A DNA stretch of 64,000 nucleotides from Antedon mediterranea (GCF_964355755.1 NC_092680.1:5580001-5644000), one strand, 5' to 3'. Positions 189 through 24,527 are shown, counted from the first letter of the stretch. Notes: generated by a model from the letters alone, not told the origin. Translations and numbers: made by a program.

Positions 189-2075
189 ATGGAAAGATAT
201 TGCTGGTGTGGGAAAATTAGATACTTGTTGCTTTGTATTCTCATACAATCTTGTTGCTTTTCTTTTGGATTCAGTAAAATTATAATACATCCAGCAGAAC
301 AGCATGTTTTTGTCGGAGAAAATGCGATAGTTGAATGCAATAATCATCACGACGAGAAACAGTTTTGGAAATGGTATAGCGTGACCGAAAACAATCTCAA
401 CGCCAAATTAATATGGAATGAACGTTCGAATGTTATTAAACAAAGTAGGTTTAACTTTGAAGTTTATGAGCAAAGGAAAAGTAGTTCCAGTAGACTGACG
501 ATAATGGGTGTTACAGTTGCTGACCAGGCTAAATACATCTGTTCACATGGAACTTTTTTAGCAATTGCTAACATTTCAGTGACCATTGGTAAACGATTGG
601 ACTCCAATTATCCAGAGTGCAAAACACACTTCTCAGAAGTCAACACAGAGAAAAAAGTACAGATGAATTGCACTGCAAATGGCGGCGAACCAAGACCAAC
701 ATTAAAATGGTACAGAAACGGTGAAAAATTAAAAGAATTTGATAAATTTCTTCTTTCTAATGGGACTTGCACGAATAATGTTGAATATTTATTGACACCT
801 AATGACGAAGGGGCTGTGTTCACATGTAGAGCAGAAGGCGTGGCAGCAGATGACAATCATAGTTGTTCCATTTCTTTAGAAACTCTTCCAACGGTCACCA
901 TTATTGCAACTGAAACATCCTTCACTGTTGGTAACTCAATGGGGTTCACATGTATGGTAATGAGCCCGTGGACCGTCACAAGCTACAGGTGGACGTTTGA
1001 TAATCAGATGGTGCAGTTATCAAATCCAGAATTTAGACATGATATTAATAATAGTATGTTAGTTAAATTGAATTTACAAGAAGACGATGAAGCTAAAGAA
1101 ATTGAATGCATTGCGATGACGGCCTCTGGGTTAAATGCTAGCGATTCTGTGCAAATTTCACTTGCACATAAAAGTCGCAAAATTGTTTTAAAAGCGGTTG
1201 CAGGAATAGTAACTCTGTTATGGGCGTGTATTATCATATTGGTTATAATAAAGAGAAATCCAATTAAATCATTAGTTACTAATTGTAATGTATCTACAAG
1301 GGATAGGCATACTGTTATAAATGATGTATCATCACCGTCCAAAACAAGCAGCAACTCTATACATAACGATATAAAATCGCAATCAGAAGAGTCAAATAGT
1401 TTTCCTATTAGAAGAAATATTGAACAAGAAAGTGTTTCATTCGATACTAATGCTGACTCTTTCGACACTTATGGAAGTATTAGTAATTTACAAGATTTGG
1501 ATTCACAGGAACGCGAACATGTTTGTAACAAGCAAACCGTTACAGGAAGTGACGATGTTCTTGACTCTCACGATACGTATGTATCGATGTTAGCCCGACC
1601 TCATAAACCACATAGAAGAACTTATTTCGTTGATTTAAATTCAAAACCAATAAAAGAAACCCACGGAACACCATCAGTTAGTAAGTTAGTCCATTCTAGA
1701 ACTATATATGCAAAACCACTGAATATGACGCAACACCGACGTTCACGATCGTCTGGGACACTGGCCGATTTTAGATATCTTTATGCAAAACCAAATAAAA
1801 AAACTAAACGACACGATAAACCACACTTGTATAGAATACATGGTTATAAAGCTATCTATGCAACGCCTACTATACGTCCCAAATCAATACATCAATCACT
1901 CGAAGATATTTCAAAAGTAACTAAAAATGACTCGTATAAAAACCGGTTGGGATCAGTTGATAATTTGTACGCCCAGCTTAACAGTAATTCCTTAGGAATG
2001 AATTCAGGAATGTATACAGGTTCTGATAAAGGCTTAAATGCACATGATGCAATGTTTCTTTTCTCCAGAATGTGA
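189..2075 (+). CDS. IgSF receptor 1 (divergent member): signal peptide, 3 Ig domains, TM, long Tyr-rich tail (TIYAKP, YLYAKP, AIYATP, NLYAQL)
   Basis: Uninterrupted ORF 66..2075. The first ATG followed by a hydrophobic leader (MERYCWCGKIRYLLLCILIQSCC) is at 189. Ig motifs: VEC..WKW..LTI..D.A.YIC; C.ANGGEPRPTLKWYRNG..FTCRAEG; FTC..SPW..YRW..IEC. TM: IVLKAVAGIVTLLWACIIILVII. Confidence 0.85.
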   Translation: MERYCWCGKIRYLLLCILIQSCCFSFGFSKIIIHPAEQHVFVGENAIVECNNHHDEKQFWKWYSVTENNLNAKLIWNERSNVIKQSRFNFEVYEQRKSSSSRLTIMGVTVADQAKYICSHGTFLAIANISVTIGKRLDSNYPECKTHFSEVNTEKKVQMNCTANGGEPRPTLKWYRNGEKLKEFDKFLLSNGTCTNNVEYLLTPNDEGAVFTCRAEGVAADDNHSCSISLETLPTVTIIATETSFTVGNSMGFTCMVMSPWTVTSYRWTFDNQMVQLSNPEFRHDINNSMLVKLNLQEDDEAKEIECIAMTASGLNASDSVQISLAHKSRKIVLKAVAGIVTLLWACIIILVIIKRNPIKSLVTNCNVSTRDRHTVINDVSSPSKTSSNSIHNDIKSQSEESNSFPIRRNIEQESVSFDTNADSFDTYGSISNLQDLDSQEREHVCNKQTVTGSDDVLDSHDTYVSMLARPHKPHRRTYFVDLNSKPIKETHGTPSVSKLVHSRTIYAKPLNMTQHRRSRSSGTLADFRYLYAKPNKKTKRHDKPHLYRIHGYKAIYATPTIRPKSIHQSLEDISKVTKNDSYKNRLGSVDNLYAQLNSNSLGMNSGMYTGSDKGLNAHDAMFLFSRM

Positions 2076-2734
2076 ATGATATCTATAGCATTATGTATTC
2101 AAGCATTGCCTAGACATTTATGATACAGATGTTGATGATACAAACGCCCAACTATCGTTGACCATGAAGAACAGAGATGAACGGTTTGAGTCATTGTGCT
2201 ATAAATAGTATAACATTCTATATCTCTAGAATCTATATTATTTGACACGAGTGATATTAGGAAGACGATTTACACTACAAACGATAATATTTCAATATAA
2301 TTGTTGCAATTTGTAATGTTTAATTATACTAAACGACTGAGTAAATCATTAATTAAGAAAATGCATGATTCTAAAAATATTATAACAATCCTCTTAAGAA
2401 TGTTTAAGCACCATTCTTTATGATAAGTACCGCACACATGAAAGAAGAAGTAACACATTGTGATATATTGTTTGTTATTGAATTTTTATAGATATGTACG
2501 GAAATTGTTGAGATACCTCGGAAACCATGTCTATTTTTCCTATCTATTAAACAACTGCTTTCGGAAGCTATTCACATAAAACCATTCTCGGAAAACATAC
2601 TTTGAAAGCGTAATATGTCACAAGACAATCTATATTATTTATAAATTGGAAGTACAACGGGTATTACGTTTAGAGTAGAAAATCTGTTGCTCAATAAACA
2701 ACATATTACATGTTTTATCTTTTTACTATATCAT

Positions 2735-4198
2735 ATGATGGTGTTCACTGGACGTTGCATGTTTATTTTTATTTGCAACATATTGTTCAATTATTGTTTA
2801 ATTCCTGCTGCTGCTGTAACAATACAACCGTTGAAAATAGATGTATTTGCTGGAGAAAATGCTGTATTTGAGTGCAATACTGATACACTAAGTTCTACAT
2901 CCAAATGGATTTGGCTTAAAGGTGCTGCTGATTTAATAGCCAAGGAAGATGTGTTTGTAAGCAATGGATATGAAGTATTGATCAGCAAAAATAGAACAAC
3001 TAGCGTATTGACAATACTTAATACTACCATTGAGGATGAAAGTATATATCATTGTCAACTTAGCTCATCATCGCCAAAAGCCACTCTAACAGTTTTGGAG
3101 GGAGTGAAATTAAACTCACTTTATCCACAGTGTGAATCGGACACCTCGTTACTAAACACAGAAACAACAGTCCAAATAAAATGTTTTGCAGAAGGAGGCA
3201 AACAAAGACCAGAATTACAATGGTACAGAAACGGAATCAAGCTAACAGAACAGACCGATCTCTTCGATGGTAAGTCTTCATACTTTGACGAGTTAACACG
3301 TGTACTGACTATCGATGACGAAGATGCTGTTTTTATGTGTAAAGCAGAAGGACCAGCTGCCGATGAGAATCAGTCATGCCAGCTACAGTTAACGGTTCCC
3401 CCAGACGTTCATATAATCTCTAACGGAACAACTTTTACCTCTGGAGGATCTCTGTTTTTGACTTGTATAACAGTAAGTCCTTGGAAAATAACAGACTATA
3501 TTTGGAAAATTGATAACGAGTTATTAATTTCGAGTAAATTAATGTATTCCATAGAGAACAATGGGAGAAACATTGCAATATTTGATCTCAATCAGAATTA
3601 TAATATCGTAATTGGTTGTGACGTAACCACGTCTTCTGGATTGGTTGGTAACGATACTATTGAGCTAAAGTATGAAGATAAAACGTCTAATGATCACAAT
3701 TATTTAATCCTAATTGTGTGTCTTTCAATTAGTATGTGTTTTGTTGGATTATTGATTGGTAGTTTGGTTAAATTCAGAAAATTGTTTAAATCGTTTAAAT
3801 GTTTTTGTATCATTAATGATAAATGTAATCAGAAACAAAGTATAGTCACATCATGCCCCAAAACAACTAGGTCATCTGATCAGACAATTTCTGGTGAAAT
3901 AGTGTATTCAGGGTTAACTACGTCATCTGATCAGACAATTTCTGGTGAAATAGTGTATTCAGGGTTAAATACGTCATCTGCTCAGACAATTTCTGGTGAA
4001 ATAGTGTATTCAGGGTTAAATACGTCATCTGATCAGACAATTTCTGGTGAAATAGTGTATTCAGGGTTAAATACGTCATCTGATCAGACAATTTCTGGTG
4101 AAATGGTGCATTCAGGGTTAGTTCCAACAACTTCCTCAATATACACCGAACTAAACCAAACAAATGTGAATGAATCACCATACGAATCATTAACTTGA
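2735..4198 (+). CDS. IgSF receptor 2: 3 Ig domains, TM, tail with tandem ITIM-like IVYSGL x4 plus SIYTEL and SPYESL
   Basis: ORF 2687..4198; the family-typical start MMVFTG is at 2735. Same Ig motifs as the paralogs. TM: YLILIVCLSISMCFVGLLIGSLV. The tail contains a 17-aa repeat. Confidence 0.9.
   Translation: MMVFTGRCMFIFICNILFNYCLIPAAAVTIQPLKIDVFAGENAVFECNTDTLSSTSKWIWLKGAADLIAKEDVFVSNGYEVLISKNRTTSVLTILNTTIEDESIYHCQLSSSSPKATLTVLEGVKLNSLYPQCESDTSLLNTETTVQIKCFAEGGKQRPELQWYRNGIKLTEQTDLFDGKSSYFDELTRVLTIDDEDAVFMCKAEGPAADENQSCQLQLTVPPDVHIISNGTTFTSGGSLFLTCITVSPWKITDYIWKIDNELLISSKLMYSIENNGRNIAIFDLNQNYNIVIGCDVTTSSGLVGNDTIELKYEDKTSNDHNYLILIVCLSISMCFVGLLIGSLVKFRKLFKSFKCFCIINDKCNQKQSIVTSCPKTTRSSDQTISGEIVYSGLTTSSDQTISGEIVYSGLNTSSAQTISGEIVYSGLNTSSDQTISGEIVYSGLNTSSDQTISGEMVHSGLVPTTSSIYTELNQTNVNESPYESLT
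3872..4120 (+). repeat. Coding minisatellite, 51-bp unit x ~5 (SSDQTISGEIVYSGL[T/N]T)
   Basis: Near-perfect repeats of tcatctgatcagacaatttctggtgaaatagtgtattcagggttaa(c/a)tacg start at 3872, 3923, 3974, 4025 and 4076. The last copy reads MVHSGL. Confidence 0.95.
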
Positions 4199-5548
4199 AC
4201 ATTTTCTATATATCTGAATATGTTGCATCAGATTCGTGCATATTTTTAACCATTGCTTCTTTAATGTACAAAGTAGTTGCTTTGTATTAAAAAACAAGTC
4301 TGCATATCTATGTATTACACTAACAGTAGCAATAACAGTTTGAAATTTACTTACAATTTTACTCAAAATATGGGAAAAAATATTGCTGTTGTTACAGAAA
4401 ACCATAATAAATGCTTAAAATTTATTTCATATACAATAATTTTCATTTGATTTCACTTCAGTGATTATTATAGTACTTCATTGTCATTTTTCAACATTTA
4501 ACAATTTGATATCTCATAATGGCTTTTGTTTAGCAAATGTTATCAAGATTGCCATATTAAATGCTATATGATGCATATTTTGCACTGATATTGTATGTAT
4601 ATAAAGTATTTCCGAAATAAATAATGTATGACAGCATGATTTTAAGGTTATTGTAGATTAATTGTAAATGATAGTCTGGTTTGTAATTATAAATTCTTAC
4701 ACGAGCAGCTTTTTTAGAAGAATCTTCTCGCCGGGAGAATTATAAAACATGTTTAAAGTTCTCCCGACAACCTAAAAACGGGATTTAAGATGTCTTCGTG
4801 CCTCGTCATTCGATGCTGTCTGAGTTGGCCTTAAGGAACAACGAAACTGTTAAGAAGGTATTCAACATCTAATTTTATATTTTTACCATTGGTTTAATAA
4901 AAGAATTGTATACATTCATTTGCATTGTAGATGATGGTAGGTCTGTAATATTAAAATGAAATTGCACGCACGCGTAACAGAGGTTAAATTGATACGCCCT
5001 CAAACTTATGGACAGGAGTTAAGAAATGTTAAAGTTTCAAACTCAAAATATCGTTGATATGTTGATCATGTGTGTTATGCTTGCCTGCAACTAATTGATA
5101 CAAACCCTGTATCATGAAATCTAAATCCTTAGACTTTTTCAAACAAAATATGTAACCATGTTTGTTTTCAACTCTGTATGCATATTCATAAATGAAAAGT
5201 GTATTTTACAACGTTTTAGATTGTTCTGCATAAATAAATGCCATTAGAAAAAATAAAATAAACACAACGGGCAAAAGAATTGCATGCATTTGAATAAAAA
5301 TGGAAACACCTCACGACGATTTTACAGTGTGAATTAAGAAGTAAACATTATAGTGTGGAGCGTGTGTTCTACAGTATGCTGTTCAAGTACTACCGTACAC
5401 CAAGACAGACGTAGATCATTGTGGCTTACTGATTGCAGGATATTTTGGAAGGAAACAACTTAAATATTGGAAAAAACAATTGTATATATTTATGTTATTA
5501 CTGGATGTGTACTAGAAGTATGTTTTGATTATACCGTACTAGGACGCC

Positions 5549-6813
5549 ATGATGTTCACCGGCCGTTTAATTTGGTTTATATTTCCTGTTGTGTGTAACT
5601 ATTGGTTACTGTCTGAAGCTGGTATCACTATACAACCAATGAATCTTGAAGTATTTGCTGGTGAAAATGCTGTATTTGAGTGCAGTGTTGATACAATAAG
5701 CTCTTCATCCAAGTGGCAATGGTTTAAGGGTGATGATGGCATAATATACAAGGAAGATGTGTTTGTAACATTTGGATATGAAGTAATGATAAGCAACGGC
5801 AGAACAACCAGTTCATTGACAATACTGAATACTACTACTATTGATGATGATGGAGACTCTTATCATTGTATGTTTGGTTCAGTATCACCATTCGCTAGCT
5901 TAGCAGTTATTGAAGGAATGAGGCTAGACTCTATGTATCCGCAGTGTGAAGCTGAAACCTCGTTACTGAACACAGAAACAACAGTCCAAATAACATGTAT
6001 TGCAGAAGGAGGTAAACCAAGACCAGAATTACAATGGTACAGAAACCGAATCAAGCTAACAGAACAGTTTGATCTCTTCGATGGTAAGTCTTCATACTTT
6101 GACGAGTTTTAACACGTGTACTGACCATCGATGACGAAGAGGCAGTGTTTATGTGTAAAGCAGAAGGTCCAACTGCAGATGAGAATCAGTTATGTCAGGT
6201 ACAGTTAAGAGTTCCCCCAGACGTTCACATATTCTCTAATTCAACAGCTTATAAATCAGGAGATCTAGAATTGACTTGTAAAACAATGAGTCCATGGAAA
6301 ATAACGGATTATATTTGAACGATTAATAACGAGTTATTAATTTTTAGTGAATTAAAGTATATCTTAAAGAACGATGGGAGAAACATAGAAATATTTGACG
6401 TCAATCATAATTGTAATATCTTCATTCGTTGTGACGTAACCACGTCTTCTGGATTGGTTGGTAACGATACTATTGAGGTAAAGTATGAAGATAAAACATC
6501 TAATGATTCAAATGACTTACCTATAAGCTTAATTGTGTGTCTTTCATTTTGTATGTTTTTTCTTGGATTGTGTATTGGTATTTTAGTTAAATTCAGCAAA
6601 GTTTTAAAATCAATCAGATCGATTCTCATGAATAAAACTAAATCTGATCAAAATGGATCTGAGAATCACGATACGAGCACTGCTGAACCTTGTTACCAGA
6701 ATACAATTATAGAAAATGATCAGACAATATCTGGTGAAATGACGTATTCAGGGTTAGTTCCAACAACTCCTTCAATATATAGAGAACTAAATCAAATAAA
6801 GGTTAATGAATAA
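5549..6813 (+). pseudogene. IgSF receptor 3 pseudogene (ITAM-type tail)
   Basis: Frameshift at ~6108-6111 (gacgagttttaacacg vs gacgagttaacacg in paralogs) plus TGG>TGA at 6316-6318. The remainder aligns almost exactly with receptor 4. There are two independent lesions. Confidence 0.9.
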
Positions 6814-8200: not shown

Positions 8201-8396
8201 ACACAAAAGAGCATAAAAGATGTCCATGCTTAAGCACTACCGATGCATAACAATTTAAAAAGTCGAGTCAGTGTACTATTACATAGTACGACGCATAATT
8301 TTAACGTAGCAGGATGCAAATCATTCGTGTGGTTCTGATGTTTATAGATACTCGGGCGTACTTTTAAATTCTACAGGACTGGAGGTATGTTTTGAT

Positions 8397-8664
8397 GGAG
8401 TGGAGCTGTGGCTTGGTGGTTATGATGCTTGGCTACCAATCTAAGGGTCCTGGGTTCAAGTCCTGTCATATGTCAGGGTTTTTTCTCATGACAATTTACA
8501 ACTCCACTCCCAAAGACTTAATAATAAGTCTTTGTTTATGTAGAGCATCTTGTGTATTTGTTTGTCTTGTGAAATTTTAAATAGTTTATCCATCCTGTAA
8601 TTGGCGGGTTACTCGCTGTTGGATGAGTATGAAATAAATAAAATAAAATAAAAATAAAAATAAA
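8397..8664 (+). mobile_element. tRNA-derived SINE inserted just upstream of the receptor 4 start codon
   Basis: Pol III A box-like tggcttggtgg, B box ggttcaagtcc and an (AAAAT)n tail. It interrupts the tatgttttgat...atgatgttc leader seen contiguous in the paralogs. Confidence 0.8.
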
Positions 8665-8669
8665 ATGTC

Positions 8670-9941
8670 ATGATGTTCACTGGCCTTTGTAACGTTATAT
8701 TTGTTTGGTCTATATGTTCTATTGTGTGTAACAACTTATTAGTTTCTGAAGCTGTTACAACAATACAACCATTGACACTTGAAGTATTCGCTGGAGAAAA
8801 TGCTGTATTTGAATGTAACGTTGACACACTTGAACCAATATTCCCTTGGCAATGGTTTAAAGGTAGAGATGTTAGAATAGCACTGGAAGATATGTTTGTA
8901 AAAAATGGATATAGTGTTAGTATCAGTAACAATAGGAGAACCAATGCGTTAACAATATTCAACACTACGCTCAGTCATGGCCAAAGTCAGTATGCTTGTC
9001 AATATGGTTCTGTATCATCATTCGTTAATCTGACAGTATTTGAGATAATGAAGTTAGACTCAACGTATCCAAAGTGTGAGGCAAACATAACGTTGATAAA
9101 CACTTTGAAAACAGTCCAACTAAAATGTAGAGAAAAAGGTAGCAATCCAAGACCAGAATTACAATGGTACAGAAACGGAATCAAGCTAACAGAACGGGTT
9201 GATCTCTTCGATGGTAGTTCTTCTTACTTTGACGAGTTAACACGTGTACTGAATATCGATGACGAAGAGGCAGTGTTTATGTGTAAAGCAGAAGGTCCAG
9301 CTGCAGATGAGAATCAGTTATGTCAGGTACAGTTAAGAGTTCCCCCAGACGTTCACATATTCTCTAATGCAACAGCTTATAAATTCGGAGATCTAGAATT
9401 GACTTGTAAAACAATGAGTCCATGGAAAATAACGGATTATATTTGGACGATTAATAACGAGTTATTAATTTTTAGTGAATTAAAGTATATCTTAAAGAAC
9501 GATGGGAGAAACATAGAAATATTTGACGTCAATCATAATTGTAATATCTTCATTCGTTGTGACGTAACCACGTCTTCTGGATTGGTTGGTAACGATACTA
9601 TTGAGGTAAAGTATGAAGATAAAACATCTAATGATTCAAATGACTTACCTATAAGCTTAATTGTGTTTCTTTCATTTTGTATGTTTTTTCTTGGATTGTT
9701 TATTGGTATTTTAGTTAAATTCAGCAAAGTTTTAAAATCAATCAGATCGATTTTCATGAATAAAACTAAATCTGATCAAAATGGATCTGAGAATCAAGAT
9801 ACGAGCACTGCTGAACCTTCTTACCAGAATACAATCATAGAAAATGATCGGACAATATCTGGTGAAATGACGTATTCAGGGCTAGTCCCAACAACTCCCT
9901 CAATATACACAGAAGTAAATCAAATAAAGGTTAATGAATAA
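8670..9941 (+). CDS. IgSF receptor 4: 3 Ig domains, TM, short tail with ITAM-like E-x7-E-x2-YSGL-x7-YTEV
   Basis: Intact 423-aa ORF with leader MMFTGLC..., the Ig motifs and TM LPISLIVFLSFCMFFLGLFIGILV. Confidence 0.9.
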   Translation: MMFTGLCNVIFVWSICSIVCNNLLVSEAVTTIQPLTLEVFAGENAVFECNVDTLEPIFPWQWFKGRDVRIALEDMFVKNGYSVSISNNRRTNALTIFNTTLSHGQSQYACQYGSVSSFVNLTVFEIMKLDSTYPKCEANITLINTLKTVQLKCREKGSNPRPELQWYRNGIKLTERVDLFDGSSSYFDELTRVLNIDDEEAVFMCKAEGPAADENQLCQVQLRVPPDVHIFSNATAYKFGDLELTCKTMSPWKITDYIWTINNELLIFSELKYILKNDGRNIEIFDVNHNCNIFIRCDVTTSSGLVGNDTIEVKYEDKTSNDSNDLPISLIVFLSFCMFFLGLFIGILVKFSKVLKSIRSIFMNKTKSDQNGSENQDTSTAEPSYQNTIIENDRTISGEMTYSGLVPTTPSIYTEVNQIKVNE

Positions 9942-13050: not shown

Positions 13051-13866
13051 ATGATGCTCACCAGGCGTAAGGTATTTGTTTGGTTTATATTTCCTGTTGT
13101 GTGTAACTACTGCTTAGTTTCTGAAGCTGTTACTACAATACAACTAATGAATCTTGAAGTATTTGCTGGTGAAAATGCTGTATTTGAGTGCAATGGTGAT
13201 ACAATAAGCTCTTCATCCAAGTGGCAATGGTTTAAGGGTGGTGGTATAATAATATACAATGAAGGTGAGTTTGTAGTAAATGGATATGAAATAATGATAA
13301 GCAACAGTAGTAGTAGTATCGGTTGTTCTACTGTTGCTTATCATTACTTCATATCCATTTACTACAAATATATTCACAATATTGAATACTACCATTGAAG
13401 ATGGAAGTGTGTATCATTGCCAACTTGGTTCAGCATCACCAGAAGCCACTTTAACAGTTTTGGGAGTGAAATTAAACTCACTGTATCCGCAGTGTGAAGC
13501 TGACACCTCATTACTGAACACAAACAAAACTGCACAAATAATGTGTAGCGCAAAAGGAGGTTACCCCAGACCAGAATTACAATGGTACAGCAACGGAGTC
13601 AAAGTATCGGAAAATGAAGATTTTTTTTTAATTTTGCTATTGGCATATTGGTTAAATTTAGCAAACTGTTAACACCATTCACATCTTTTTGCATGAATAA
13701 TACTGATTCTGATCAAAATAGTGGAAATCAAGAAATGCGCACTGCTGGACCTTGTTATCAGAATACAATCATAGAAAATGATCAGACAGTATCTGGAGAA
13801 ATGACGTATTCAGGGCTAGTTCCAACAACTCCCTCAATATACACAGAACTAAATAAAATAAAGTAA
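13051..13866 (+). pseudogene. IgSF receptor 5 pseudogene (ITAM-type tail); inverted duplication in the V domain and a large internal deletion
   Basis: Starts MMLTRR..., is broken by a fold-back insertion at 13270-13368 and resumes in another frame. It then jumps at ~13620 from mid-Ig2 directly to the end of the TM. The tail ENDQTVSGEMTYSGLVPTTPSIYTEL is retained. Confidence 0.9.
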
Positions 13867-15091
13867 ATGAATAATAGTCATACATTAGACTCTTTTTCTG
13901 AAGATGTTATATGTCTGGATCACTATGAATTCAATCTATGCATTTTGTACATGGTAATCACTGATTTACGTTGGTAGTCCGTTTCTTTGTGTATATTATT
14001 GTACCATATTAAATGATAGTGCGTGTACGTTTAAAAGGTATCTAACAATGTGGTGGAATGGTTATACATTCATTCGAAATGGATTCTGAAACAAAACATA
14101 TAGTTTAGCAATAATATTCGAAAAGTTGGCTAATCTTCTTCCAAACTATGTTTGGTTTTGTATATGCTAGTATAATAATCTAATTATTATGGTAATTATA
14201 CTTCTCCAAAATGGTATTGGTTATAAAAGATATATGTAATAAAAACAGAATACTATATAAAATTATTGTGACTCGAATTACTTACTTTATATTGTAAACT
14301 GATTTATAAGAATAAATATTACACTATTATCATTCACATGTGCTGTAATAACTGAACAAATATGATTGGACAGGGTACAAGGATCATACAAATTGCCATG
14401 ATTTTAAAGTTGCATCCATTAGAAATTATGAATAAGTTATAGTTATTAGACGACCTAACTAGGTCAGGTCAATCGGTGTGTCGTCGGTCATCGCTTAGAC
14501 CTAGAACCATCAAACCTATGTCGAGGAAACACTCCCAGCGCACAGTGAATTGAAATTACTTTGGTCGCATGTCTTGCTTTTGAAATAATGCATATTGCGT
14601 GCCTGGCAAACTGACTAATCGAAAGATTAAATTATGAGAGAAAACACACAAACTTCATTAACTTTAATTCCGTAGCTATCATATTTTTTTCTGTATATAA
14701 ATAACCTAATACTGTAATACAAACACATTTTGTAAACTCTTCTTATTGTTCATGAACACTATGTTGCGTTGCATGAGAAATGGGGAAAACCTATGACCAT
14801 TAAATTACAGGGCGTGTATCATATGTGCTACTCATAGAAAATGTATCATTCATCATAAATATTATCTACAAAAGTACAGCAAATTATTGTTATAACAGTA
14901 ATTACTAGGTACACTAAAGAAAATGTACTTTCTAACAATGGAGTAGTATAAATATCACTAGTGCATAACGATTTGATGACATAAACGAGATTTAAAGTAC
15001 AGTCTCAGAGTGAATGACGACGTATAACGTGACGAACCTGTTGCTCTGCTATTTTAAGAGAAAACAGACCAAAAGTATATTAAATTCTGCA

Positions 15092-16419
15092 ATGGTGTTC
15101 ATCGGTTGTTTTAAGCTTTTCTTTGGTCTATATGTCTTATTTCGTCAAACTACTGTTTAACCTCTGAAGCTTTTACCATAATTGAACCACTGAATCTTAC
15201 TGTACTTGCTGGGGAAACCGCTGTATTTCAGTGTAACACTGATCGGGTAGACCAGGCTCTTTGGCAATGGTTTAAAAATCGAAATAAACCAATAGCTGTG
15301 GAAAATGGATATGTATCAGATGAATACATTATGTCGGTTAGTGGAAGAACAAGTGAGTTGATGAAACATAATACTACTACTGAGGATGATCAAAGTCAGT
15401 ATCATTGCCAGTATATTTCTTCCTCGTTATACGCTAATCAAACGGTTATCGAGAAGTTGGACGTTATGTATCCATTATGTGAAACGACTATAACGTCCAT
15501 AAACAGTGATAAAACTGTCTCAATATCATGTAGTGCAAAAGGAGGCAACCCAAGACCAGAATTACAATGGTACAGAAACGGAGTCAAACTATCAAAAAAT
15601 AGCGGTAAGTCCACATACTACGACGTGTTAAAACGTTTATTGACTTATGAAGATGAACAAGCAGTGTTTGTGTGTAAAGCTGAGGGATTGGCTGTTGACG
15701 GAAAACAAACATGTAGTGTGAACTTAAATGTTCGTCCAGAAGTCATAATAACTTACACAACAATTTCTTTCGAGGTTGGAGATTCTCTAGAATTTAAATG
15801 TAGAGTAATGACTCCGTGGAAGATCATAGATTACGTTTGGAAAACCAATAACACGTTGGTGACTACGTCAGGCTATAGTTTTATTCTAACAGATGACAAG
15901 ACAGTGCTCATAATTAATAATTTAAAATCGAGTGACACAGACGTAGAAATAAAATGTCAAGTGACAACGGCATCAGGTCTAACCGGTAGTGATTCAGTAA
16001 CAATTTCACTAAGTGACCGTGAATCAGATTGGTTATTTGTTGTTTTATTTGCTGGAGGAATCATCTTTATGTTTATTTTTATATCAGTATGTCAGAAAAA
16101 ACAAGAGAAAGCATCAGTCGCCACAATACTTGAAACACTTCAAACGCCCAATCAATCAAACGCTGACATACAAAACATTGTTTCCCAAGAAAATCCTACC
16201 TTAACATATGACCAAACAGATGATGAACGTGGGTCATCATTAGTTGCCATCATTAATAGTAGCAGTGAAGAATCGTCAGAAGCCGAAACTGAACGTGTAA
16301 CACAAAGTCCAACGCCTTCGAACGAATCTACAGGGAATCAGACGTCCGACGTTGATGAAGACAGTAGCATTGGCAGCTTTTGTAGTTTCTATAGTTTTGA
16401 TGACGAAGATACCGAATAA
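15092..16419 (+). pseudogene. IgSF receptor 6: intact from 15115 onward but with a 1-nt frameshift in the signal peptide (pseudogene, null allele or assembly indel); short acidic tail
   Basis: The ATG at 15092 (MVFIGCFKLF) is out of frame with WSICLISSNYCLTSEA...; the main frame has a TAA at 15112. The indel lies in the T-rich cttttcttt run. Three Ig domains and TM WLFVVLFAGGIIFMFIFISV follow. Confidence 0.65.
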
Positions 16420-17157
16420 TTTCCTAACAAGAAAATCATTTTGATGCTGTACAATTAGACATCATGATATATTATATAATGTGTTTGATTAGTTATTCAA
16501 TGTATCTATTCTTTTCAACTACTAATATTTTAGTGGTAATTTCCACACACAAATGTGTAGTTTAATAATCAATATCTTTACAGTAAATCATTATTCATAA
16601 AGTATAATCAAAACGATAATTATACTAGGCCTACTTTTAGATAATGATGACTATAGAAACTGTAATGTATATTTTATAGTTAGTTTATTGATATTTTAAA
16701 CCGTATTTGTTAAAAAGAATTGTAATTATTATTATTATAATGTTACTGAAAGTTTCAAACGAATTTAAGTGGGTCGCCCCCACGAAAAAGAAAAAAAAAG
16801 ATAACAACTTGGCAATGATTAATTACATTAGGCCTAAATTAAAAATATGAAATATCAATTTTAGTTTAAAGCGTAGTATCTTGAAATATAAAAATCATAC
16901 TATTTATATGAAATCATGTTATTCGTTTACACATCGTAATTAAAAATATATTATATGGGGTTACAACTGAGAAATATTGATATCGGTTCCATTTTTACCA
17001 TATAGGCCTATTTAGTTTAATGTAGACTGTTATTCAATTCAATTGAATTGCATTCTCTGGCTCATAGAAAATAAACTAAATGAACAACATTTAAAAGTGT
17101 GAGTACAATATATCAGAATACCATTCTATCTGGAGAGCATCTTTGATTCATATGATG

Positions 17158-17825
17158 GTAGGGTGCCTCAATGGGAAAAATGACAAGAATCGTTACACGA
17201 ATGACAAAGTTTTCAAATGTTGCATATATGTTCACTAGGGCATATTATAGACTCGAAAAATACTGTAGCAAAAAAAAAAGTTGTTGGCTACGACCATATA
17301 TGAGGCATTTTCAAAATGACGGCCAAAACTAAAATATGGTCTATATCTCGTTCATTTTAGTGTCAAAATGCTCAGAACATAATATATTTCTATTCGTAAT
17401 AATACCTTTTTTGTCAGGAAATGGCCGGAATCACAATTTCCGTAATTGTGACCTTTGACCCTAGTGTGCTCATATCTTGATAACTACTTGTTGTAGAGAC
17501 ATGCGATTGGGCTTAACTTGTTACCGACATATATGTTAAAATGTTGTCCTAAAGTGACTGGAAACCACGGTATTGACCCTTGATAGTCTCAAATTTCGGT
17601 AACTGATGGGCATAAAATCGTAATATTGAGCTTAAATTATGCAAGACGTATACTATTTATATTTGAATATAATGACTAAATGTGTTTGTAATTTGGTCTA
17701 ATTAACTGTTTGTAGCCAAACAATTTTTTTTTTGGCTATAGTGATTTTTCGAGTCTATAAGCCCTAGTGAACATATATGCAAACTTTGTCATCCGTGTAA
17801 CGATTCTGACTCAAAGACACCCTAC
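17158..17825. mobile_element. Non-autonomous DNA transposon (MITE) with long terminal inverted repeats (~115-135 bp)
   Basis: gtagggtg...gaatcgttacacgaatgacaaagtt...gcatatatgttcactagggc...tatagactcgaaaaat is mirrored by atttttcgagtctata.gccctagtgaacatatatgc.aactttgtcatccgtgtaacgattc...caccctac. Confidence 0.85.
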
Positions 17826-18414
17826 TAAATATATTGTCTAATATATTTTCACGTGTATTAGATCTACACATCAGGCCATGTATCGTTTTTCTTTTAAAAT
17901 TATAAAAATAATTATACACTCTGTAAACATGAAGATGACACAATGTCGAGGCTTTTACATCAATATTCTTAAATCATCACTATACTGTATACCGAGATCA
18001 CAAGACCCTAGATTATAGTATGTAGTAGGCTATAACACATTATTTAAGTTATGACCACATGAAATTGTAGTGTGCATTGGCATGGGAGAAGCTAGTAATC
18101 AGAGAACTATCTCCACTCTCCCCCTCTCTGTTCTTTCCCCTCTCCTATCCAAATTACATTTACAACTCTCTTGATCAGGAAGTTAACAAAATAAATGGTC
18201 TCTTACTAGTATTTCTAACAAAATGACTACACACAAAGATCACAAAAGAACCCGGATACTCGTACGGTAAGTTTAAGCATCGGAGCATAACGACTTTATA
18301 ACAAGTGTATATACGATGTTACAGCACTACACCAAATGGTTGACTGATTGCGTTGACTTTTTGGTTGCACGTTGGAGTAGGACTGGATATATGTTTTGAT
18401 GATACTAAGATGTT

Positions 18415-20469
18415 ATGATGTTCACTCTTTGGTCTATATTTTCTGCTCTGTATCTGTACTCATTAGTTTCTGAAGCTGTTACCACTATAAAACCATTGAA
18501 TCTTGAAGTATTTGCTGGCAAAAATGCTGCATTTCAATGTAACACTGATCAGAATGGGACAGCTTTATGGCAATGGTTTAAAAATCGCAGAAATCCAGTA
18601 GCCACAGAAAATGGATATGTATCAGAAGGATACAGTATGACTGTTAGTATAGGAACAAGTGAGTTGACAAAATATAATACTACTATTGAGGATGACCAAA
18701 CTCAGTATCACTGCCAGTATATTTCGTCTTCGTTATACGCTTATCTAACGGTTATCACGAGGTTAGACGCTATTTACCCGTTGTGTGAAACAAATACAAC
18801 GTCAGTAAACAGTGATAAAACTGTATCAATATCATGTAGTGCACAAAGAGGTAACACAAGACCGGAATTACAATGGTACAGAAACGGAGTTAAACTAACA
18901 GAACGAGTTGATTTCTTTAATGGTAAGTTATTCATTGACGAGTTAATACGTGCACTGACTTATGACGATGAAGGAGCAGTGTTCTTGTGTAAAGCCGAGG
19001 GTTCAGCAGTCGGAGAAAACCAATCATGTCAGGTAAAGTTGAATACTCGCCCAGACGTCATCATAACTTATGCAAACAAATCTTTTACCGCTGGAGATTC
19101 TCTAGAATTTACTTGTACAGCAATGAGTCCATGGAAGATCATTTCTTACGTTTGGACAATAAACAATGAGTTGGTAACTGCGTCAGGGCACAGCTTCAGT
19201 CTAAAAGATAACATGACAACGCTAGTTGTTAGTGATTTACAATCTAGTGACGATGACGCAGAAATAAAATGTGAAGCAATGACAAAATCTGGTCTTACCA
19301 GTACTGATTCAGTCACAATTTTATTTAACGACATTCCAATAACCACTGACAGTGAATCTGTTTTTCCAATTTTCATTTTATATATTGGAGGAGTCCTGCT
19401 CTTGATATTAATATCCATCGTAATTGTAATATTAGTAAAACGTAGGAAAAAACAAGGGAAAACATCCATAACCAAAACAGAACGTGTAAGATTTCAAAAT
19501 TCAACTCATTCAAAAGATGGAATAGTGAACATTATTTCTCTAGATAATCCCACCTTCACATATGATCCAGAATCTGTTAACGAGATTAACGAAGATTTTA
19601 ATAATCCTCATGTCGTGAAGATTAGACTTAATGATTATGATATTGGTGATAACGGTACTGATGAATTTAGGTCATACGAAGAACAAGGTTTTGAAACTTA
19701 CGCAAATGCAGAATCCGCTGCAAGCATTGGAAGCTTTTGCAGTTTTAACAGTTTTGATCAAGATGATGGAGATTTTCGTCCTGTTTATGATGATGTTGGA
19801 AGCCAACCTAGTATAGATATTGGTCTTGATATGCAAGAAAGTCAGATGAACAGGCACACTAATACATTAGTAGAAACAATTAGTGTTGATGATTTATACG
19901 CAAAACCAATAAAGAAGAGACGGGTAAAAGGTGACACCAGATCTCTTGATGGAATCGATAATGTTGAAGAACAATACGCAAAACCGATTAAGAAGAATAA
20001 AAGTAACCTACTACATCGGCAATCAATACACCAATCTCTTGAAAACGTACTAAGACCAAATATAAAAAATGACACGTTTTATAGCACAGTAGAGTCATTT
20101 GATGATCTATATGCTAAGCCTAATAAAACTCGTGTAACTGGACAGCCTAAAGAGTTCAAATCTAAACAGAGCTTAAAGCCGAAACTCCCGCCAAAACCTA
20201 CGCATATTGATGGGCGTTCTACCATTCGTAAAAAGTTAGACCCTGAAGCGAGCGACAAACCGAAACCTCCTACCAAACCTAGCCCTATCAATGGGCGCTC
20301 TTCGGTTCGTGAAGACTCCGACCAAAAGCAACGTACCAAACCAAAACTTCCTCCAAAACCTAGGTCAACTAATAGTGATCATAAAACACTGTCAAATGTA
20401 CCATCTGGCAACCAGCTCATGCTAACTTCATTACCCTCAATGGATTTTACATATTCGAGTATTGCATAG
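18415..20469 (+). CDS. IgSF receptor 7: 3 Ig domains, TM, long tail with DDLYAKP-type motifs, KPKLPPKP proline-rich motifs and C-terminal DFTYSSIA
   Basis: Intact 684-aa ORF with leader, Ig motifs, TM IFILYIGGVLLLILISIVIVILV and basic stop-transfer KRRKK. Confidence 0.92.
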   Translation: MMFTLWSIFSALYLYSLVSEAVTTIKPLNLEVFAGKNAAFQCNTDQNGTALWQWFKNRRNPVATENGYVSEGYSMTVSIGTSELTKYNTTIEDDQTQYHCQYISSSLYAYLTVITRLDAIYPLCETNTTSVNSDKTVSISCSAQRGNTRPELQWYRNGVKLTERVDFFNGKLFIDELIRALTYDDEGAVFLCKAEGSAVGENQSCQVKLNTRPDVIITYANKSFTAGDSLEFTCTAMSPWKIISYVWTINNELVTASGHSFSLKDNMTTLVVSDLQSSDDDAEIKCEAMTKSGLTSTDSVTILFNDIPITTDSESVFPIFILYIGGVLLLILISIVIVILVKRRKKQGKTSITKTERVRFQNSTHSKDGIVNIISLDNPTFTYDPESVNEINEDFNNPHVVKIRLNDYDIGDNGTDEFRSYEEQGFETYANAESAASIGSFCSFNSFDQDDGDFRPVYDDVGSQPSIDIGLDMQESQMNRHTNTLVETISVDDLYAKPIKKRRVKGDTRSLDGIDNVEEQYAKPIKKNKSNLLHRQSIHQSLENVLRPNIKNDTFYSTVESFDDLYAKPNKTRVTGQPKEFKSKQSLKPKLPPKPTHIDGRSTIRKKLDPEASDKPKPPTKPSPINGRSSVREDSDQKQRTKPKLPPKPRSTNSDHKTLSNVPSGNQLMLTSLPSMDFTYSSIA

Positions 20470-21184
20470 ATGTATTCAGTATACAGTTGAGCTCAAAATT
20501 GCTTGGTAAATACAATGTTTTGAATTGAAAGGAACGATGCCGTTACTCATACCATGCCAAAAGACGATGAAATTCCTTTGACCATGGAGACTCAAAATAC
20601 AATGTTTAAAATATATTAAAACGTAGTTGCGTTGTAAAGTATACATTTAAAAAATTGCGCTCTTTCTAATTTTAAAATAGGCACCGAAATGGAACTGGGA
20701 TACATCAACTGAATTGATTTATGAAATTTTAGTTTCTTGATAACGGAAAATTTCGGAAGATTTCAGTATACTATGTTTATAGATGACAATTATTTCAGAA
20801 TGTTTATACATGTACGGTATTCATTTACATTGATATTAAATCCTTCACCCCTCTGTCTATAGGCCTAATTAGTATATAATCTGAGATCTTGAATACTTGC
20901 TTGTTTTGTATTTCGTATTGCAAAGCAAACGGACAATAGCGCTATAGAAAACATCTAAAGTTGATGATATGATTATGAAAGTTAAAGAGAAATTGAAAGT
21001 TCGAATAACAAAAGAAACACAACGTATAACTACTGAACTGAACTGAAGTATTATAATAGCAATACAGTATGAATACTGAATGCTCTGATTGAATAAAAGT
21101 GGTATTTTACAAAAGAAAGAATGTATAGTATGCCATATCGAAGTGTATTTTGTAATGTATAAATAGATAGGCAATCGCAATCAT

Positions 21185-21316
21185 TTTTAGTCGCGTGCAA
21201 TGCGACTCTACAGCTCACTATGTCGGTCGGTTGGTCGGTCGGTCGGTTGGCCGGTCGGTCGGTCGGTTGGTCGGTCGGTAAACGCTAACTCAAATTTGAG
21301 CACGCGACTACAGTCT
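21185..21316 (+). mobile_element. HINE/DINE-1-like short element with (GGTC/GGTT)n microsatellite; relatives at ~25700-25775 (+) and ~31900-32073 (-)
   Basis: tttttagtcgcgtgcaatgcgact hairpin, then tcactatgtcggtcgg microsatellite, then gagcacgcgact inverted repeat. Parts of this layout recur at the two other sites. Confidence 0.65.
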
Positions 21317-22631
21317 TGTTAATATTAAAAATTAATATCAAATTTAATCATTTTAATAAATTTTTCCAAATTGTTTATTGTATATAATAAATTATTTTGT
21401 TATACTTTTAAATATTTTCTGTACTTTTCTATTTTTACGCATTTTAAACTGGAGTGTATTAAAGATATTATTATTTGTATATTTGAAATTTTAATTGTTA
21501 ACATTGCCATTGTAAAACTGTATTGGGTAAACGTAACCGAAACAATAAACTTGTACAGTTTAATGATTACGCCTACACATTGTATTATTTTCCTCATGTG
21601 TATTAATAACTTTTGGAAATATTTTATTATGAACATTTTTACACTTTTTAAATGTGTCTATTATACTTGATAACAAAGTATAAAGAAGGTCCAGTACACA
21701 ACACACTATTAGACTGCAATTTATACGTGTACGTTATAAAATTCATTAGAATTGTTACAACGTTTAGATATTATATTTAAGTGTAATTGTGATTTGTAGG
21801 CCTACGCTCGTGAAAATATACTGGTATGTGTCATCTTATCATGAGTAATTTGTGATAATATATATGTTTGAAAAACGGTACACACGCACTTGCCAGCAGA
21901 GAATGTATCCAAAAAAAAGTGCGTATCCATGCGCGAGTACAATAGCACAAATACATTAAACGATTACAACGGTCATCATAATAAAGAACAATTTATCGAA
22001 GCCTACAAGCGGCAAATGAACAAATCAAAAAGTTAGTTCATATCATGGGATATGAGAAATCTAATAATAGACCAGCGAGAAACGAAATTTTACGCCATGG
22101 GCTCCAAATGGGTGGGGAATATCGGCGCTATATAAGTTTTCATTTATTATTATTAAGTATGAGTCCGCAAATGAAAACCTAATGAGTCACTAAAAATAAA
22201 AATAAATCTATCAAAATACAGGAAGTGAATTCCAAAATCTTTCGTCATCGTAAAAGAAACAATTTCTTTTGTTAAATGTCTATACAAAAGTATGGCCTTA
22301 CCACACATAAAGATTGGTTTAAAAACTTAGATCATAGGCAGCGATGCATAACGCTTTGGTAGTTGACAATGAAAATACAGTATTTTAGAATAGGGAAGCG
22401 TGAATGTTAATCACTGTCATAGGGTATCTGTATCAGTTAAACTGGAAGTAGCCTAAAACACTGGGCATATACAAAACTTTTCAATAATATTTGAAAATTA
22501 ATAGACATTGAAGACTATAGAAGAATATATCTGTGGCGTTTGAAATGTAAACAAGGCTGTTACTGTTTCGAACTATAATATTATATTTGATACTGCTGGA
22601 CATTTCATTTGAAATTTTTACTTATGATGCC

Positions 22632-24527
22632 ATGATGTTCACTGACGGTTGTAAGTTTACATTTGTATCATCTATATTTCTTGTTTTGTTTAACTACTGT
22701 TTAATTTCTGACGCTGTTGTCACTATACAACCATTGAATATTGAGGTATTTGCTGGTGAAAATGCTGTATTTGAGTGCAATACTGTTATAGGCCTACTGA
22801 GTTCTACATCCAAGTGGCAATGGTTTATTGGTACTGATGGGCACTTGATAGCTAATGAAGACGCATTTGTAACAGATGGATATGACGTAATGATAAGCGG
22901 CAATAGGACAACCAGTATATTGACAATATTAAATACTACAATCATTAGGAACAATGGAAGAGTGTATTCTTGTCTATTTGGTTCATCATCACCACAAGCC
23001 ACTCTGACAGTTATCGATGGAATGAGGTTAGACTCAATGTATCCCCAGTGTGATTCAGACATGACGTCAATAAACACCGAGAAAACAGCACAACTAACAT
23101 GTAGTGCAAAAGGAGGGGATCCTAAACCAGAACTGCAATGGTACAGAAACGGAGTCAATTTATCGGAGAATCAAGATTTTGAAAGTTATGATTCTTCATC
23201 ATCATACTTTGAACAGTTAACACTTGTATTGACTATCGATGACGAAGATACAGTGTTTATGTGTAAAGCAGAAGGTCTAGCTGCTGACGAGAATCAGGCA
23301 TGTCAAGTTCAGTTAAGAGTTCCTCCGGACGTAGAGGTAATGTCTAACAAAACATATTTTACTTCTGGAGAGTCTCTAGAATTTACTTGTATAGCAATGA
23401 CTCCATGGAAAATTATGGAATATATTTGGACTATCAATGACGAGATAATGTCTACCTCAAAATATACCTTTATTCTAACAAATAACATGACAACGCTCGT
23501 CATTGATGATTTTGACGCTGATGCAGAAGTAAAATGTGAAGTGATAACAGCAACTGGTTTAACAGGTAGCGATTCGGTCACAATTACATTTTTAACTGTA
23601 AATGATGAATCAAATTGGTTACTTTTAGCGATAATATTGGTTGGAGGAGCAATGTTATTGTTACTTGTATTCATTATTGTTTTCATATTTGCAAAACGTC
23701 GTCAAAAACAAGGTAAAACATCGATAACCAAAACAGAACGAGCAACATTTCGAAATGACATGACAGATGGAATTGTACACATAGTACCGGTGCCTTTAGA
23801 TAATCCGAACTTTATCGACGAGAGAGATTATGAGGTTGATATTGATAATCCAAATGTGTTGAGGATTAATTTTGAAGATAATATGGAAGGTTATAACATG
23901 GATGATAATCATATGGATGATGACTATATGAATGATGATCATATCGATGGTAGTTCGGATATAAATGATGGCGGTAGATCATACGAAGAGAAGCCTGGTT
24001 TTGAAACTTACGCAAATGCAGAATCAGTTGCCAGTCTTGGAAGCTTTTGCAGTTTCAACAGTTTTGATCACGTTGATAACCGTCATAGTAGATATGTTGG
24101 CCATATGATCGACACTGGATCTCAAGATAGATTGACTGAGTTTGACGATCTATACGCAAAACCAAACCAGAGTAGGCAAAGTAAAGTGGACACAAAATCA
24201 GTTGATGGAATAGATAGGCCTAATGTTGAAGAACTGTATACAAAACCGAATAAAAAGTACAGGCAATCAATACACCAATCTCTTGAAGACATTTTAAAAC
24301 CAAGCACCGATAATAACAGAGCAGAATCATTTGATGATCTATACGCTAAGCCTAATAAAAAGCGTGCAACTGGACAGCCTATACTTTTTAACGAGTTATA
24401 CACTAAACATGACTTCAAACCCAAGCCACCACCAAAACCTAGGCCGATTAAGATTTCAGTATGTGATGATCAGATGAGTTCGTCAAACGTAATTGAACAT
24501 GATTTTACATATTCAAGTATTGCATAA
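22632..24527 (+). CDS. IgSF receptor 8: V domain of the receptor 2/3/5 type with a receptor-7-type YAKP/PxxP tail
   Basis: ORF 22587..24527; the family start MMFTDG is at 22632. Ig motifs present; TM WLLLAIILVGGAMLLLLVFIIVFIFA. Tail: ETYANAES, DDLYAKP x2, KPKPPPKP, DFTYSSIA. Confidence 0.92.
   Translation: MMFTDGCKFTFVSSIFLVLFNYCLISDAVVTIQPLNIEVFAGENAVFECNTVIGLLSSTSKWQWFIGTDGHLIANEDAFVTDGYDVMISGNRTTSILTILNTTIIRNNGRVYSCLFGSSSPQATLTVIDGMRLDSMYPQCDSDMTSINTEKTAQLTCSAKGGDPKPELQWYRNGVNLSENQDFESYDSSSSYFEQLTLVLTIDDEDTVFMCKAEGLAADENQACQVQLRVPPDVEVMSNKTYFTSGESLEFTCIAMTPWKIMEYIWTINDEIMSTSKYTFILTNNMTTLVIDDFDADAEVKCEVITATGLTGSDSVTITFLTVNDESNWLLLAIILVGGAMLLLLVFIIVFIFAKRRQKQGKTSITKTERATFRNDMTDGIVHIVPVPLDNPNFIDERDYEVDIDNPNVLRINFEDNMEGYNMDDNHMDDDYMNDDHIDGSSDINDGGRSYEEKPGFETYANAESVASLGSFCSFNSFDHVDNRHSRYVGHMIDTGSQDRLTEFDDLYAKPNQSRQSKVDTKSVDGIDRPNVEELYTKPNKKYRQSIHQSLEDILKPSTDNNRAESFDDLYAKPNKKRATGQPILFNELYTKHDFKPKPPPKPRPIKISVCDDQMSSSNVIEHDFTYSSIA

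Follow-up and report, generated by a model that had tools for sequence, protein, structure and literature searches.

A tandem array of eight single-frame immunoglobulin-type loci with exchanged ectodomains and tails in the crinoid Antedon mediterranea

Results

Five intact genes and three disabled copies

The stretch analysed here, henceforth the window, comprises 64,000 nucleotides of the Antedon mediterranea genome (GCF_964355755.1 NC_092680.1:5580001-5644000), and all positions are counted from its first letter. Between positions 189 and 24527 of its + strand lie eight paralogous loci, g1 to g8, found by listing open reading frames and by tblastn of the window against itself, two procedures that gave no further copy of the family elsewhere in the 64 kb. 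All eight have an immunoglobulin (Ig) family match, in keeping with the initial annotation, which had read the region as eight same-strand genes with a V-like domain, two further Ig domains and a transmembrane (TM) segment. Namely, the order of parts is a signal peptide, a V-like domain (D1), a CD80-like C2 domain (D2), a third, I-type Ig domain (D3), one TM segment and a tail; the AlphaFold2 model of the g8 ectodomain consists of three beta-sandwiches at a mean predicted local distance difference test (pLDDT) score of 90. The array is real, belongs to a crinoid and has apparently not been described before. The absence of introns, previously claimed for every coding sequence, holds for five of the eight loci (g1, g2, g4, g7 and g8), each of which is a single unbroken frame from signal peptide through tail, whereas g3, g5 and g6 are disabled, which settles at three what had been given as two or three defective copies. 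The term intronless is used throughout as a property of the DNA frames only.

The most divergent copy is g1 (189-2075), an intact gene with a further in-frame ATG upstream, at 78, and with a tail of what we call type B that contains three YxxP motifs (1707, 1782 and 1857). In g2 (2735-4198), also intact, TM segment and tail are of type A, and a 51-bp tandem repeat at 3871-4120 (+ strand, 4.9 copies, 97% matches) codes for four IVYSGL units matching the immunoreceptor tyrosine-based inhibition motif (ITIM), which are followed by IYTEL and a terminal YESL. The intact g4 (8670-9941) has a short type-A tail, E-x-x-YSGL-x7-YTEV. Toward the right end, g7 (18415-20469) is intact and of type B, with three YAKP (19897, 19975, 20110), two PxLPxK (20179, 20341) and a C-terminal YSSIA, while g8 (22632-24527) is an intact mosaic, its D1-D2 being nearest to those of g2, g3 and g5 and the second half of its D3, its TM segment and its tail being of type B, with three YxxP, one PxxPxK and, again, YSSIA at the end.

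As for the disabled loci, g3 (5549-6813) is a chimeric pseudogene with a type-A tail (YSGL-x7-YREL), two extra T at 6107-6110 that shift the frame and a TGA at 6316-6318. The pseudogene g5 (13051-13866) carries an inverted piece at 13321-13368 in D1. It has also lost about 480 nt near 13602-13638, and with them the last part of D2, all of D3 and the greater part of the TM segment, its type-A tail (YSGL-x7-YTEL) still being present. Finally, g6 (15092-16419), sister to g7 in D1-D2 and ending in a truncated type-B tail, has a frameshift in the signal-peptide region, where it is 4 nt shorter than g4, and is open over the rest. The g6 lesion is real and not a slip of assembly, since contigs of sequencing run X1 match 14000-19069 letter for letter (0 differences, 0 gaps). 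The lesions of g3 and g5 are unlikely to be assembly errors, because the former has two independent lesions and the latter two rearrangements. A contig of X5, a second sample with the same organism code, places 568 letters on 564 positions at the 5' end of g6 with 4 gaps, a count that equals the 4-nt shortfall; possibly another individual has an intact g6 allele, which is a lead only. Over 14000-19069, X1 has three unbroken contigs at a depth of 29-34, while several pieces to their right reach 42-58, as might be expected if g6 and the 5' end of g7 were absent or divergent in a second haplotype. This hint was not used as evidence, and neither were the cover gaps of X7 (a run with another organism code) and X9 over the g6 tail bin and of X9 over g7 D1, nor was X5, which is RNA by guess only and covers non-genic flank too, used as evidence of expression.

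Two tail lineages

The tails are two lineages and not the four classes initially proposed. Type A (g2 to g5 and P0012, a protein discussed below) combines a TM segment containing Cys and GxxxG with a short tail that ends in E-x-x-Y-S-x-L-x7-Y-x-E-L/V. Type B (g1, g6, g7, g8, P0016 and P0002-4) has a longer tail with a Ser/acidic block and repeated (D/E)LYAKP-like motifs, the proline motifs being found in g7 and g8. What had been taken for two further classes are the tail of g6, which is a g7/g8 tail truncated after the common Ser/acidic block, and that of g2, which is a g3/4/5 tail expanded by about five copies of the 51-bp unit. In the latter, four units read IVYSGL (I for the M of g3-g5) and the fifth MVHSGL, with H for Y, and because this is the last unit, the first tyrosine of the pair spaced as in an ITAM (immunoreceptor tyrosine-based activation motif) is lost in g2; it retains YTEL-x9-YESL, a loose ITAM by the x6-9 criterion applied to Alr.

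Compared with shuffles of the same tails, Y[AST]xP, a pattern picked after the tails had been inspected, occurs three times in each of g1, g7 and g8 against 0.13-0.16 expected (p<=0.0006), and g2 has six ITIM matches against 0.51, four of them being copies of one unit. The ITAM-type label given earlier to g3, g4 and g5 stands as far as the spacing of the pair is concerned; however, two of these three copies are pseudogenes and g4 ends in V. Namely, a strict ITAM is found in P0012 (shuffle p=0.0004) and in the dead g3 and g5, g4 having a V-variant that is significant (p=0.0012) only with V permitted in the last place, and the YxxP motifs of the B tails are neither ITAM nor ITIM. The B-tail motifs are retained in another crinoid, Anneissia.

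Ectodomains and tails have different histories

The two outer Ig domains and the module consisting of half of D3, the TM segment and the tail yield different trees (approximately unbiased (AU) test, p 6e-7 to 1e-3). With 11 rows, a clade of the four A-tail genes was rejected on D1+D2 (p-AU 5.8e-7), and on half-D3+TM so were the groupings of P0012 with P0016 (0.00135) and of g2/g3/g4 with g8 (1.1e-8); repeated on 9 rows, without g1, g3 and the TM segment, the test gave 1.0e-5 for the A-tail clade and 0.044 and 0.014 for the ectodomain groupings, all groups having been named from tail type and identity tables rather than blind. A sliding window places the switch at mid-D3 in both lineages. In particular, g8 is 67% identical to g2 and 48% to g7 in D1, as against 27% and 55%, respectively, in half-D3+TM. 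P0012 (A tail) and P0016 (YxxP tail) are ectodomain sisters (support 100/99) with identities of 62% in D1, 73% in D2 and 24% in half-D3+TM, whereas P0012 and g2 share 43%, 51% and 55%. Synonymous distances (dS, for D1/D2/D3) flip likewise, being 0.53/0.62/1.21 for g2-g8, 1.27/1.12/0.62 for g7-g8 and 0.87/0.26/0.01 for g3-g4, which makes this recombination and not convergence. By sequence, g3 arose recently as a hybrid: its identity to g5 reaches 97% in 5' windows, whereas after about 6020 it matches g4 at 92-100%, past the stop into the 3' flank. All of these swaps lie within a single reading frame. Because the module trees differ, similar ectodomains bear different tails, as they do in paired receptors: g8 (B) goes with g2-g5 (A), and P0012 (A) with P0016 (B). 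In this sense, the paired-receptor-like organisation and birth-and-death pattern that had been suggested for the array hold up, two further paralogs with one tail type each included.

A crinoid branch of the KirrelL/Kirrel2L group

The close relatives whose names were checked are proteins of Anneissia japonica and A. mediterranea, the latter (P0012 and P0016) probably representing at least two more family members on the same chromosome as the window. One clade of 15 rows (100/100), split from Kirrel2L at 100/100, unites the window genes with P0012, P0016 and five proteins of Anneissia. Among 166 sequences scored by best single stretch, the crinoid rows are followed by P0085 and its relatives (119-127 bits), then by three-Ig proteins of Amphiura, Asterias and hemichordates (93-111 bits), the nephrin-like P0118 and the roughest-like P0158 reaching about 56 bits. 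P0085 and P0155 are Kirrel2L, matched by eye to the first 400 residues in the supplement of PMC8903837 (Figure 6 source data 3); the sequences there stop at 400 letters, and tail motifs sought among them were accordingly not found. Profile-profile alignment with the group by hhalign is collinear over all three domains (276 columns, 99.9%, E 1.8e-35). An extra cysteine pair in D2, with P-x-C in the first strand and C in the last one, which is our own observation as a mark of the group and is present in hemichordates too, occurs in 16 of the 19 sequences tested: all six window genes, five crinoid paralogs, P0085, P0124, P0145, P0141 (hemichordate) and P0088; the pattern missed P0076, P0158 and P0118. 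Compared by eye, Aj_kirrelL, the crinoid KirrelL of the same supplement, is unlike each of the six Anneissia relatives that were found, and the trees were built without any KirrelL sequence. Taken together, sequence kinship indicates that the array is a crinoid side-branch of the echinoderm KirrelL/Kirrel2L-type three-Ig group, with Kirrel2L as the nearest non-crinoid kin. The initial annotation had named straightforward orthology to known adhesion molecules as a refutation, and half of this applies: the genes do descend from a known adhesion and fusion group, but they do not appear to be its one-to-one orthologs.

According to the portion of PMC8903837 available, kirrelL is needed for skeletogenic cells to fuse and lacks introns in all echinoderms examined, a state that may stem from retrotransposition. 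Because these kin are already intronless, the lack of introns in the array was probably inherited, with the proviso that the intronless state is reported for kirrelL and not for Kirrel2L. A recent retrocopy as founder was rejected, as the matches contain no intron-bearing parent (the genome beyond them was not searched) and relationship to the intronless kirrelL suffices as an explanation. The earlier idea of an independently evolved, possibly retrocopy-founded family thus gives way to descent within this group, its retrotransposition element surviving in the possible origin published for kirrelL. Three giant hemichordate proteins (P0007, P0008, P0017) stand at or near the top of the profile search through the summed scores of 7-18 repeats of a D2-D3-like unit of about 211 residues; with best single stretches of 60-78 bits, they were rejected as a parent gene. 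P0007 ends in a hydrophobic segment without a tail. Word-based searches were insensitive, with 4, 6 and 5 matches, and overlooked close paralogs recovered by the profile search, and names were checked for 19 of the 150 profile matches listed, with long multi-Ig proteins mostly not among them.

The tails of the non-crinoid kin, namely Kirrel2L and the Asterias relative, carry two C-terminal ITIM-like motifs 21-29 residues apart, together with, in Kirrel2L, one conserved YAKP. From the likeness of the first motif, the type-A pair would descend from this ancestral ITIM-like pair. In Anneissia, tandem arrays and pairs differing in tail length recur: P0022 and P0025 are near-sister ectodomains with a short and a long (YAEP/YAKP) tail, respectively; P0076 (1123 aa) looks like two tandem three-Ig/TM/tail genes of the wider group merged in one model; and the RefSeq isoforms P0003 and P0004 (LOC117110357) differ by one tandem 80-residue tail copy, which is either true splicing or a gene-model artefact and parallels the repeat expansion of g2.

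Upstream elements and neighbouring genes

A conserved 13-nt element on the + strand, similar to TGCATAACGATTT, is found between 8244 and 22357 (at 8244, 12819, 14962, 18284 and 22345), 130-430 nt ahead of the ATG in g4 to g8; these sites make up 5 of the 10 matches to a pattern that was chosen after sight. The 5' leader of g4 contains an insertion of about 270 bp at 8398-8665 (+ strand) with an A-rich run at its end, just before the ATG. It resembles a short interspersed nuclear element by eye only, support from tRNA and Rfam comparison not being found, and it precedes the only intact gene with an ITAM-spaced pair, whose expression or translation it could alter. Scans of the upstream regions for promoter motifs were uninformative.

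To the right of the array, + strand positions 27850-28130 hold a hydrophobic run with stops, followed by an open frame of 62 codons that contains the tyrosine motifs NEYQEF and ENVYAEP. This stretch, decayed-looking and without Pfam match, may represent a terminal exon or what remains of the tail of another receptor, and contigs of X5 and X7 cover it. From 31200 to 64000 (+ strand) follow three intron-rich tandem paralogs with 72-95% nucleotide identity over common exons. Two of them occupy about 31.2-40.1 kb and 42.5-51.7 kb, and the third starts near 57.5 kb and runs past the end of the window. In the first, helical-repeat-like exons are combined with a coiled coil, a Death domain (E 1e-10), two TIR_2 domains and a CaaX-like CCVS end, and the second ends in CCVL. 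This Death-TIR-TIR array, 7 kb from the Ig array, is a second innate-immune-type expansion, possibly of membrane-anchored adaptors. Between its second and third genes, at 53396-56165 (+ strand), lies a remnant of a long interspersed nuclear element (RVT_1 E 2e-34, zf-RVT E 6e-9), followed by a tandem 549-bp duplication.

Discussion

Paired recognition receptors as a working interpretation

The best explanation, to which we give about an even chance, is that the products of the array act on mesenchymal or phagocytic cells as paired recognition receptors. D1 would then bind a cell-surface or microbial ligand, related ectodomains would detect the same or overlapping ligands, and Src-family kinases would phosphorylate the tail tyrosines. 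(A homodimer prediction for D1-D2 of g8, computed without alignment, gave no verdict, with a score of 0.00 in two runs.) The type-B tails, with YxxP repeated three times and proline motifs, would recruit adaptors of the Crk/Nck/Abl type and lead to Rac/actin responses such as adhesion or engulfment; PxLPxK is the preference of the Crk SH3 domain. The type-A pair of g4 and P0012, with 7 residues between its halves, would engage the tandem SH2 domains of Syk or HTK16/Shark and activate, and g2, having four ITIMs and having lost the ITAM tyrosine, would recruit SHP/SHIP phosphatases and damp the response. Recombination inside D3 has joined related ligand-binding ends to the two membrane-plus-tail modules, and unequal crossover and conversion would continue to produce new ectodomain-tail pairs as well as dead copies.

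As regards cell type, blastocoelar cells are larval immunocytes. In the part of PMC12189403 at hand, sea-urchin Kirrel2L_4 is enriched in Prox1+ mesenchyme other than the primary mesenchyme cells (PMCs), thought to include blastocoelar cells. The accessible text of the other sources describes binding of phosphorylated YxxP repeats to Crk SH2 and thereby DOCK180/Rac in migration and phagocytosis (PMC2689226), of ITAMs to Syk/Shark and of ITIMs to SHP/SHIP (10.1101/2022.03.04.482883), and Syk, HTK16, Csk and Abl in a sea star transcriptome (PMC11593052). Paired receptors are portrayed there as linked genes whose ectodomains are homogenised by conversion and whose tails oppose each other (PMC13358205). 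The Death-TIR-TIR neighbourhood lends the immune interpretation of the Ig array circumstantial support.

That said, a number of observations weigh against paired receptors. Ectodomain partners share just 62-73% identity in D1/D2, and classic paired receptors are more alike than this. A charged TM residue (K/R/D/E) is present in none of the six TM cores of intact or near-intact genes. The sole intact type-A motif of the window, that of g4, has V in the last place and could in its second half equally be an ITIM, and because of this and of the loose ITAM kept by g2, signalling polarity is ambiguous. None of the eight upstream regions contains NF-kB or IRF sites (expected under 1), and the characterised kin act in skeletogenic cell fusion. 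Moreover, the per-domain comparison of substitution rates gave no sign of diversifying selection: overall omega (M0) is 0.38, 0.30 and 0.37 for D1, D2 and D3, and M1a against M2a among paralogs is not significant (p=0.26, 0.76 and 1.0), in a site-model test by a script written for this analysis, with 7-8 sequences and low power.

Variation between samples, taken from the 8 longest pieces per run, speaks for the interpretation but gives hints only, as the pieces are few, some gene pieces include flank of the untranslated region and some may be paralogs from outside the window. In X5, the five gene-region pieces differ at 189 of 4701 letters (4.0%) and the three flank pieces at 20 of 1456 (1.4%; p=1e-7); the g6 piece, the shortest, differs by just 0.9%. 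In X7, from which a duplicate flank piece was left out, the g8 D1-D2 piece differs at 50 of 519 letters (9.6%), the g8 tail at 14 of 377 (3.7%), the g7 D2-TM piece at 44 of 704 and four non-coding pieces at 101 of 1526 (6.6%), so that g8 D1-D2 exceeds its tail (p 0.0006) and the flanks (p 0.026) in divergence, which is a hint only. The coding variant sites listed (11 non-synonymous, 9 synonymous) are a biased top 20 of 1093 rows with paralog cross-mapping and were not used.

Alternative explanations

The strongest rival, improbable in our judgement but to be taken seriously, is a developmental adhesion and fusion code, in which the copies keep a KirrelL-type job and sort or fuse skeletogenic and other mesenchyme cells, in ossicles and arm regeneration for instance, the tails tuning actin coupling and the mosaicism being a by-product of tandem arrangement. 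Kinship speaks for it, since the closest relative outside crinoids is Kirrel2L, which itself bears a YAKP and the C-terminal ITIM-like pair, so that a developmental protein can have such motifs; PMC fusion depends on kirrelL, which is expressed both in skeletogenic centres of the adult and in arms that regenerate, and the YxxP-Crk-DOCK180-Rac route serves migration too, as far as the text of PMC2689226 goes. Against such a code, Kirrel2L orthologs are 78-80% identical across sea urchins, as against 27-70% identity in D1 among copies in one genome, three of the eight copies are dead, and the crinoid KirrelL ortholog of the supplement is, by eye, a different protein from all six Anneissia relatives. 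The upstream regions point both ways, with Ets-like cores in excess (25 against 16 expected, reached in 2 of 100 shuffles; one of six motifs, in paralogous leaders that are not independent) and Alx1 palindromes not enriched (12 of 100 shuffles).

Distinctly less probable is largely neutral birth-and-death, under which one or two copies matter, unequal crossover has supplied the others as redundant genes that drift towards pseudogenes, and swapping of tails serves no function. The three dead copies and the insertion in the g4 leader would suit it, as would the 36-44% of codons that fit omega=1, the lack of a positively selected class and exact look-ups in which g1, g2 and g4 as read here have no record (0 of 5 sequences). 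However, purifying selection acts on 56-64% of codons (omega 0.12-0.22), each of the two tail types is still found in separate ectodomain clades, with the B motifs kept in Anneissia, the swaps happened twice at the same mid-D3 position and left the proteins complete, and a common upstream element precedes five of the eight genes.

Feather stars are, to our knowledge, solitary and without natural fusion, which we count against allorecognition. An Alr-like complex, put forward by the initial annotation, in which allele-specific homophilic D1 binding would tell self from conspecific tissue, is unlikely and the least probable of the three. Although Alr, too, comprises Ig receptors that lie in clusters, have ITAM/ITIM tails and show shuffled domains and pseudogenes, and the X5 gene pieces are raised in diversity, the Alr domains have one exon each and a Fn3-like region in the text available (10.1101/2022.03.04.482883), unlike the single frames here, no cnidarian is among the matches looked up by name, and a diversity of about 4%, from one further sample of the same organism, is modest.

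To return to paired receptors, a bolder version of this interpretation can be formulated, which we advance tentatively and would not expect to hold in full. It would see in the array a crinoid paired-receptor immune system built from an intronless cell-fusion group, in which the ITIM pair contracted from 21-29 to 11 residues and so reached ITAM spacing, g2 became inhibitory again through tyrosine loss and repeat expansion, recombination at a fixed point in D3 replaces exon shuffling, and haplotypes differ in intact gene content.

Opposing tyrosine motifs on Ig receptors are a known feature of cnidarians, oysters, tunicates and vertebrates. In the open-access literature we found neither such a cluster in an echinoderm nor a description of this crinoid family, and the part of a review of invertebrate Ig superfamily proteins that was available mentions an oyster receptor with an ITAM, without any example from echinoderms (PMC11999971). 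Should the paired-receptor interpretation be true, it would fill the echinoderm gap, tie a skeleton-fusion protein group to immune-type recognition and show that ectodomain-tail domain shuffling needs no introns. Because the genes are short and single-frame and come with natural tail swaps, the signalling claims are directly testable in cell lines.

Comparison with known systems

Activating members of vertebrate paired families have a charged TM residue for an adaptor of the DAP12/FcR-gamma type. The array has neither that residue nor a DAP12-type adaptor, and its ITAM-like motif is in the receptor itself. Otherwise the likeness to vertebrate paired receptors (Siglec-5/14, Siglec-11/16, PILR, SIRP) is one of genetics, as these, too, are described as linked genes with related ectodomains on different tails, conversion and null copies (PMC13358205, as far as available); they swap at exon borders, however, whereas the array swaps inside one frame and its partners are less alike. 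Beyond the Ig fold there is no homology between them: the top fold matches of the array are SIRP ectodomains, but at a TM-score of only about 0.4, a generic three-Ig likeness.

Hydractinia Alr (10.1101/2022.03.04.482883) and the Botryllus fester co-receptors (10.1101/2024.10.16.618699), according to the sections available, resemble the array as clustered invertebrate families with ITAM/ITIM-type tails, intergenic recombination and pseudogenes. Alr differs in having each Ig domain, spacer and TM segment on an exon of its own and in having a Fn3-like region, where the array has three Ig domains in single frames; homophilic allele-specific binding is demonstrated for Alr, and both systems are tied to allorecognition in colonial animals.

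Nephrin/SYG-2, Kirre/Neph1 and nectin/CADM enter the comparison through the best sequence match of solved structure, SYG-2 (E 2.3e-19), through the Atlas look-alikes fasciclin-3, nectin, roughest and CADM, and through RefSeq automatic names that include syg-2-like and nephrin-like. Against the 119-127 bits of Kirrel2L, the roughest-like and nephrin-like proteins reach some 56 and are without the D2 cysteine pattern.

Closest are the Ig proteins of the PMCs, KirrelL, Kirrel2L, IgTM and Hypp1164 (PMC8903837), a group with the same layout of V-like domain, CD80-like C2 domain, third Ig domain and TM segment. The array shares with Kirrel2L the extra D2 cysteine pair and, in the tail, YAKP and a tyrosine pair, and with kirrelL the lack of introns. 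Unlike this group, it is a fast-turnover tandem set with pseudogenes, two tail lineages and ectodomain-tail swaps, and by eye it does not appear to be the KirrelL ortholog. In sum, the array is like a paired-receptor cluster in its genetics and of KirrelL/Kirrel2L type in its descent, and it is neither Alr nor any vertebrate paired family.

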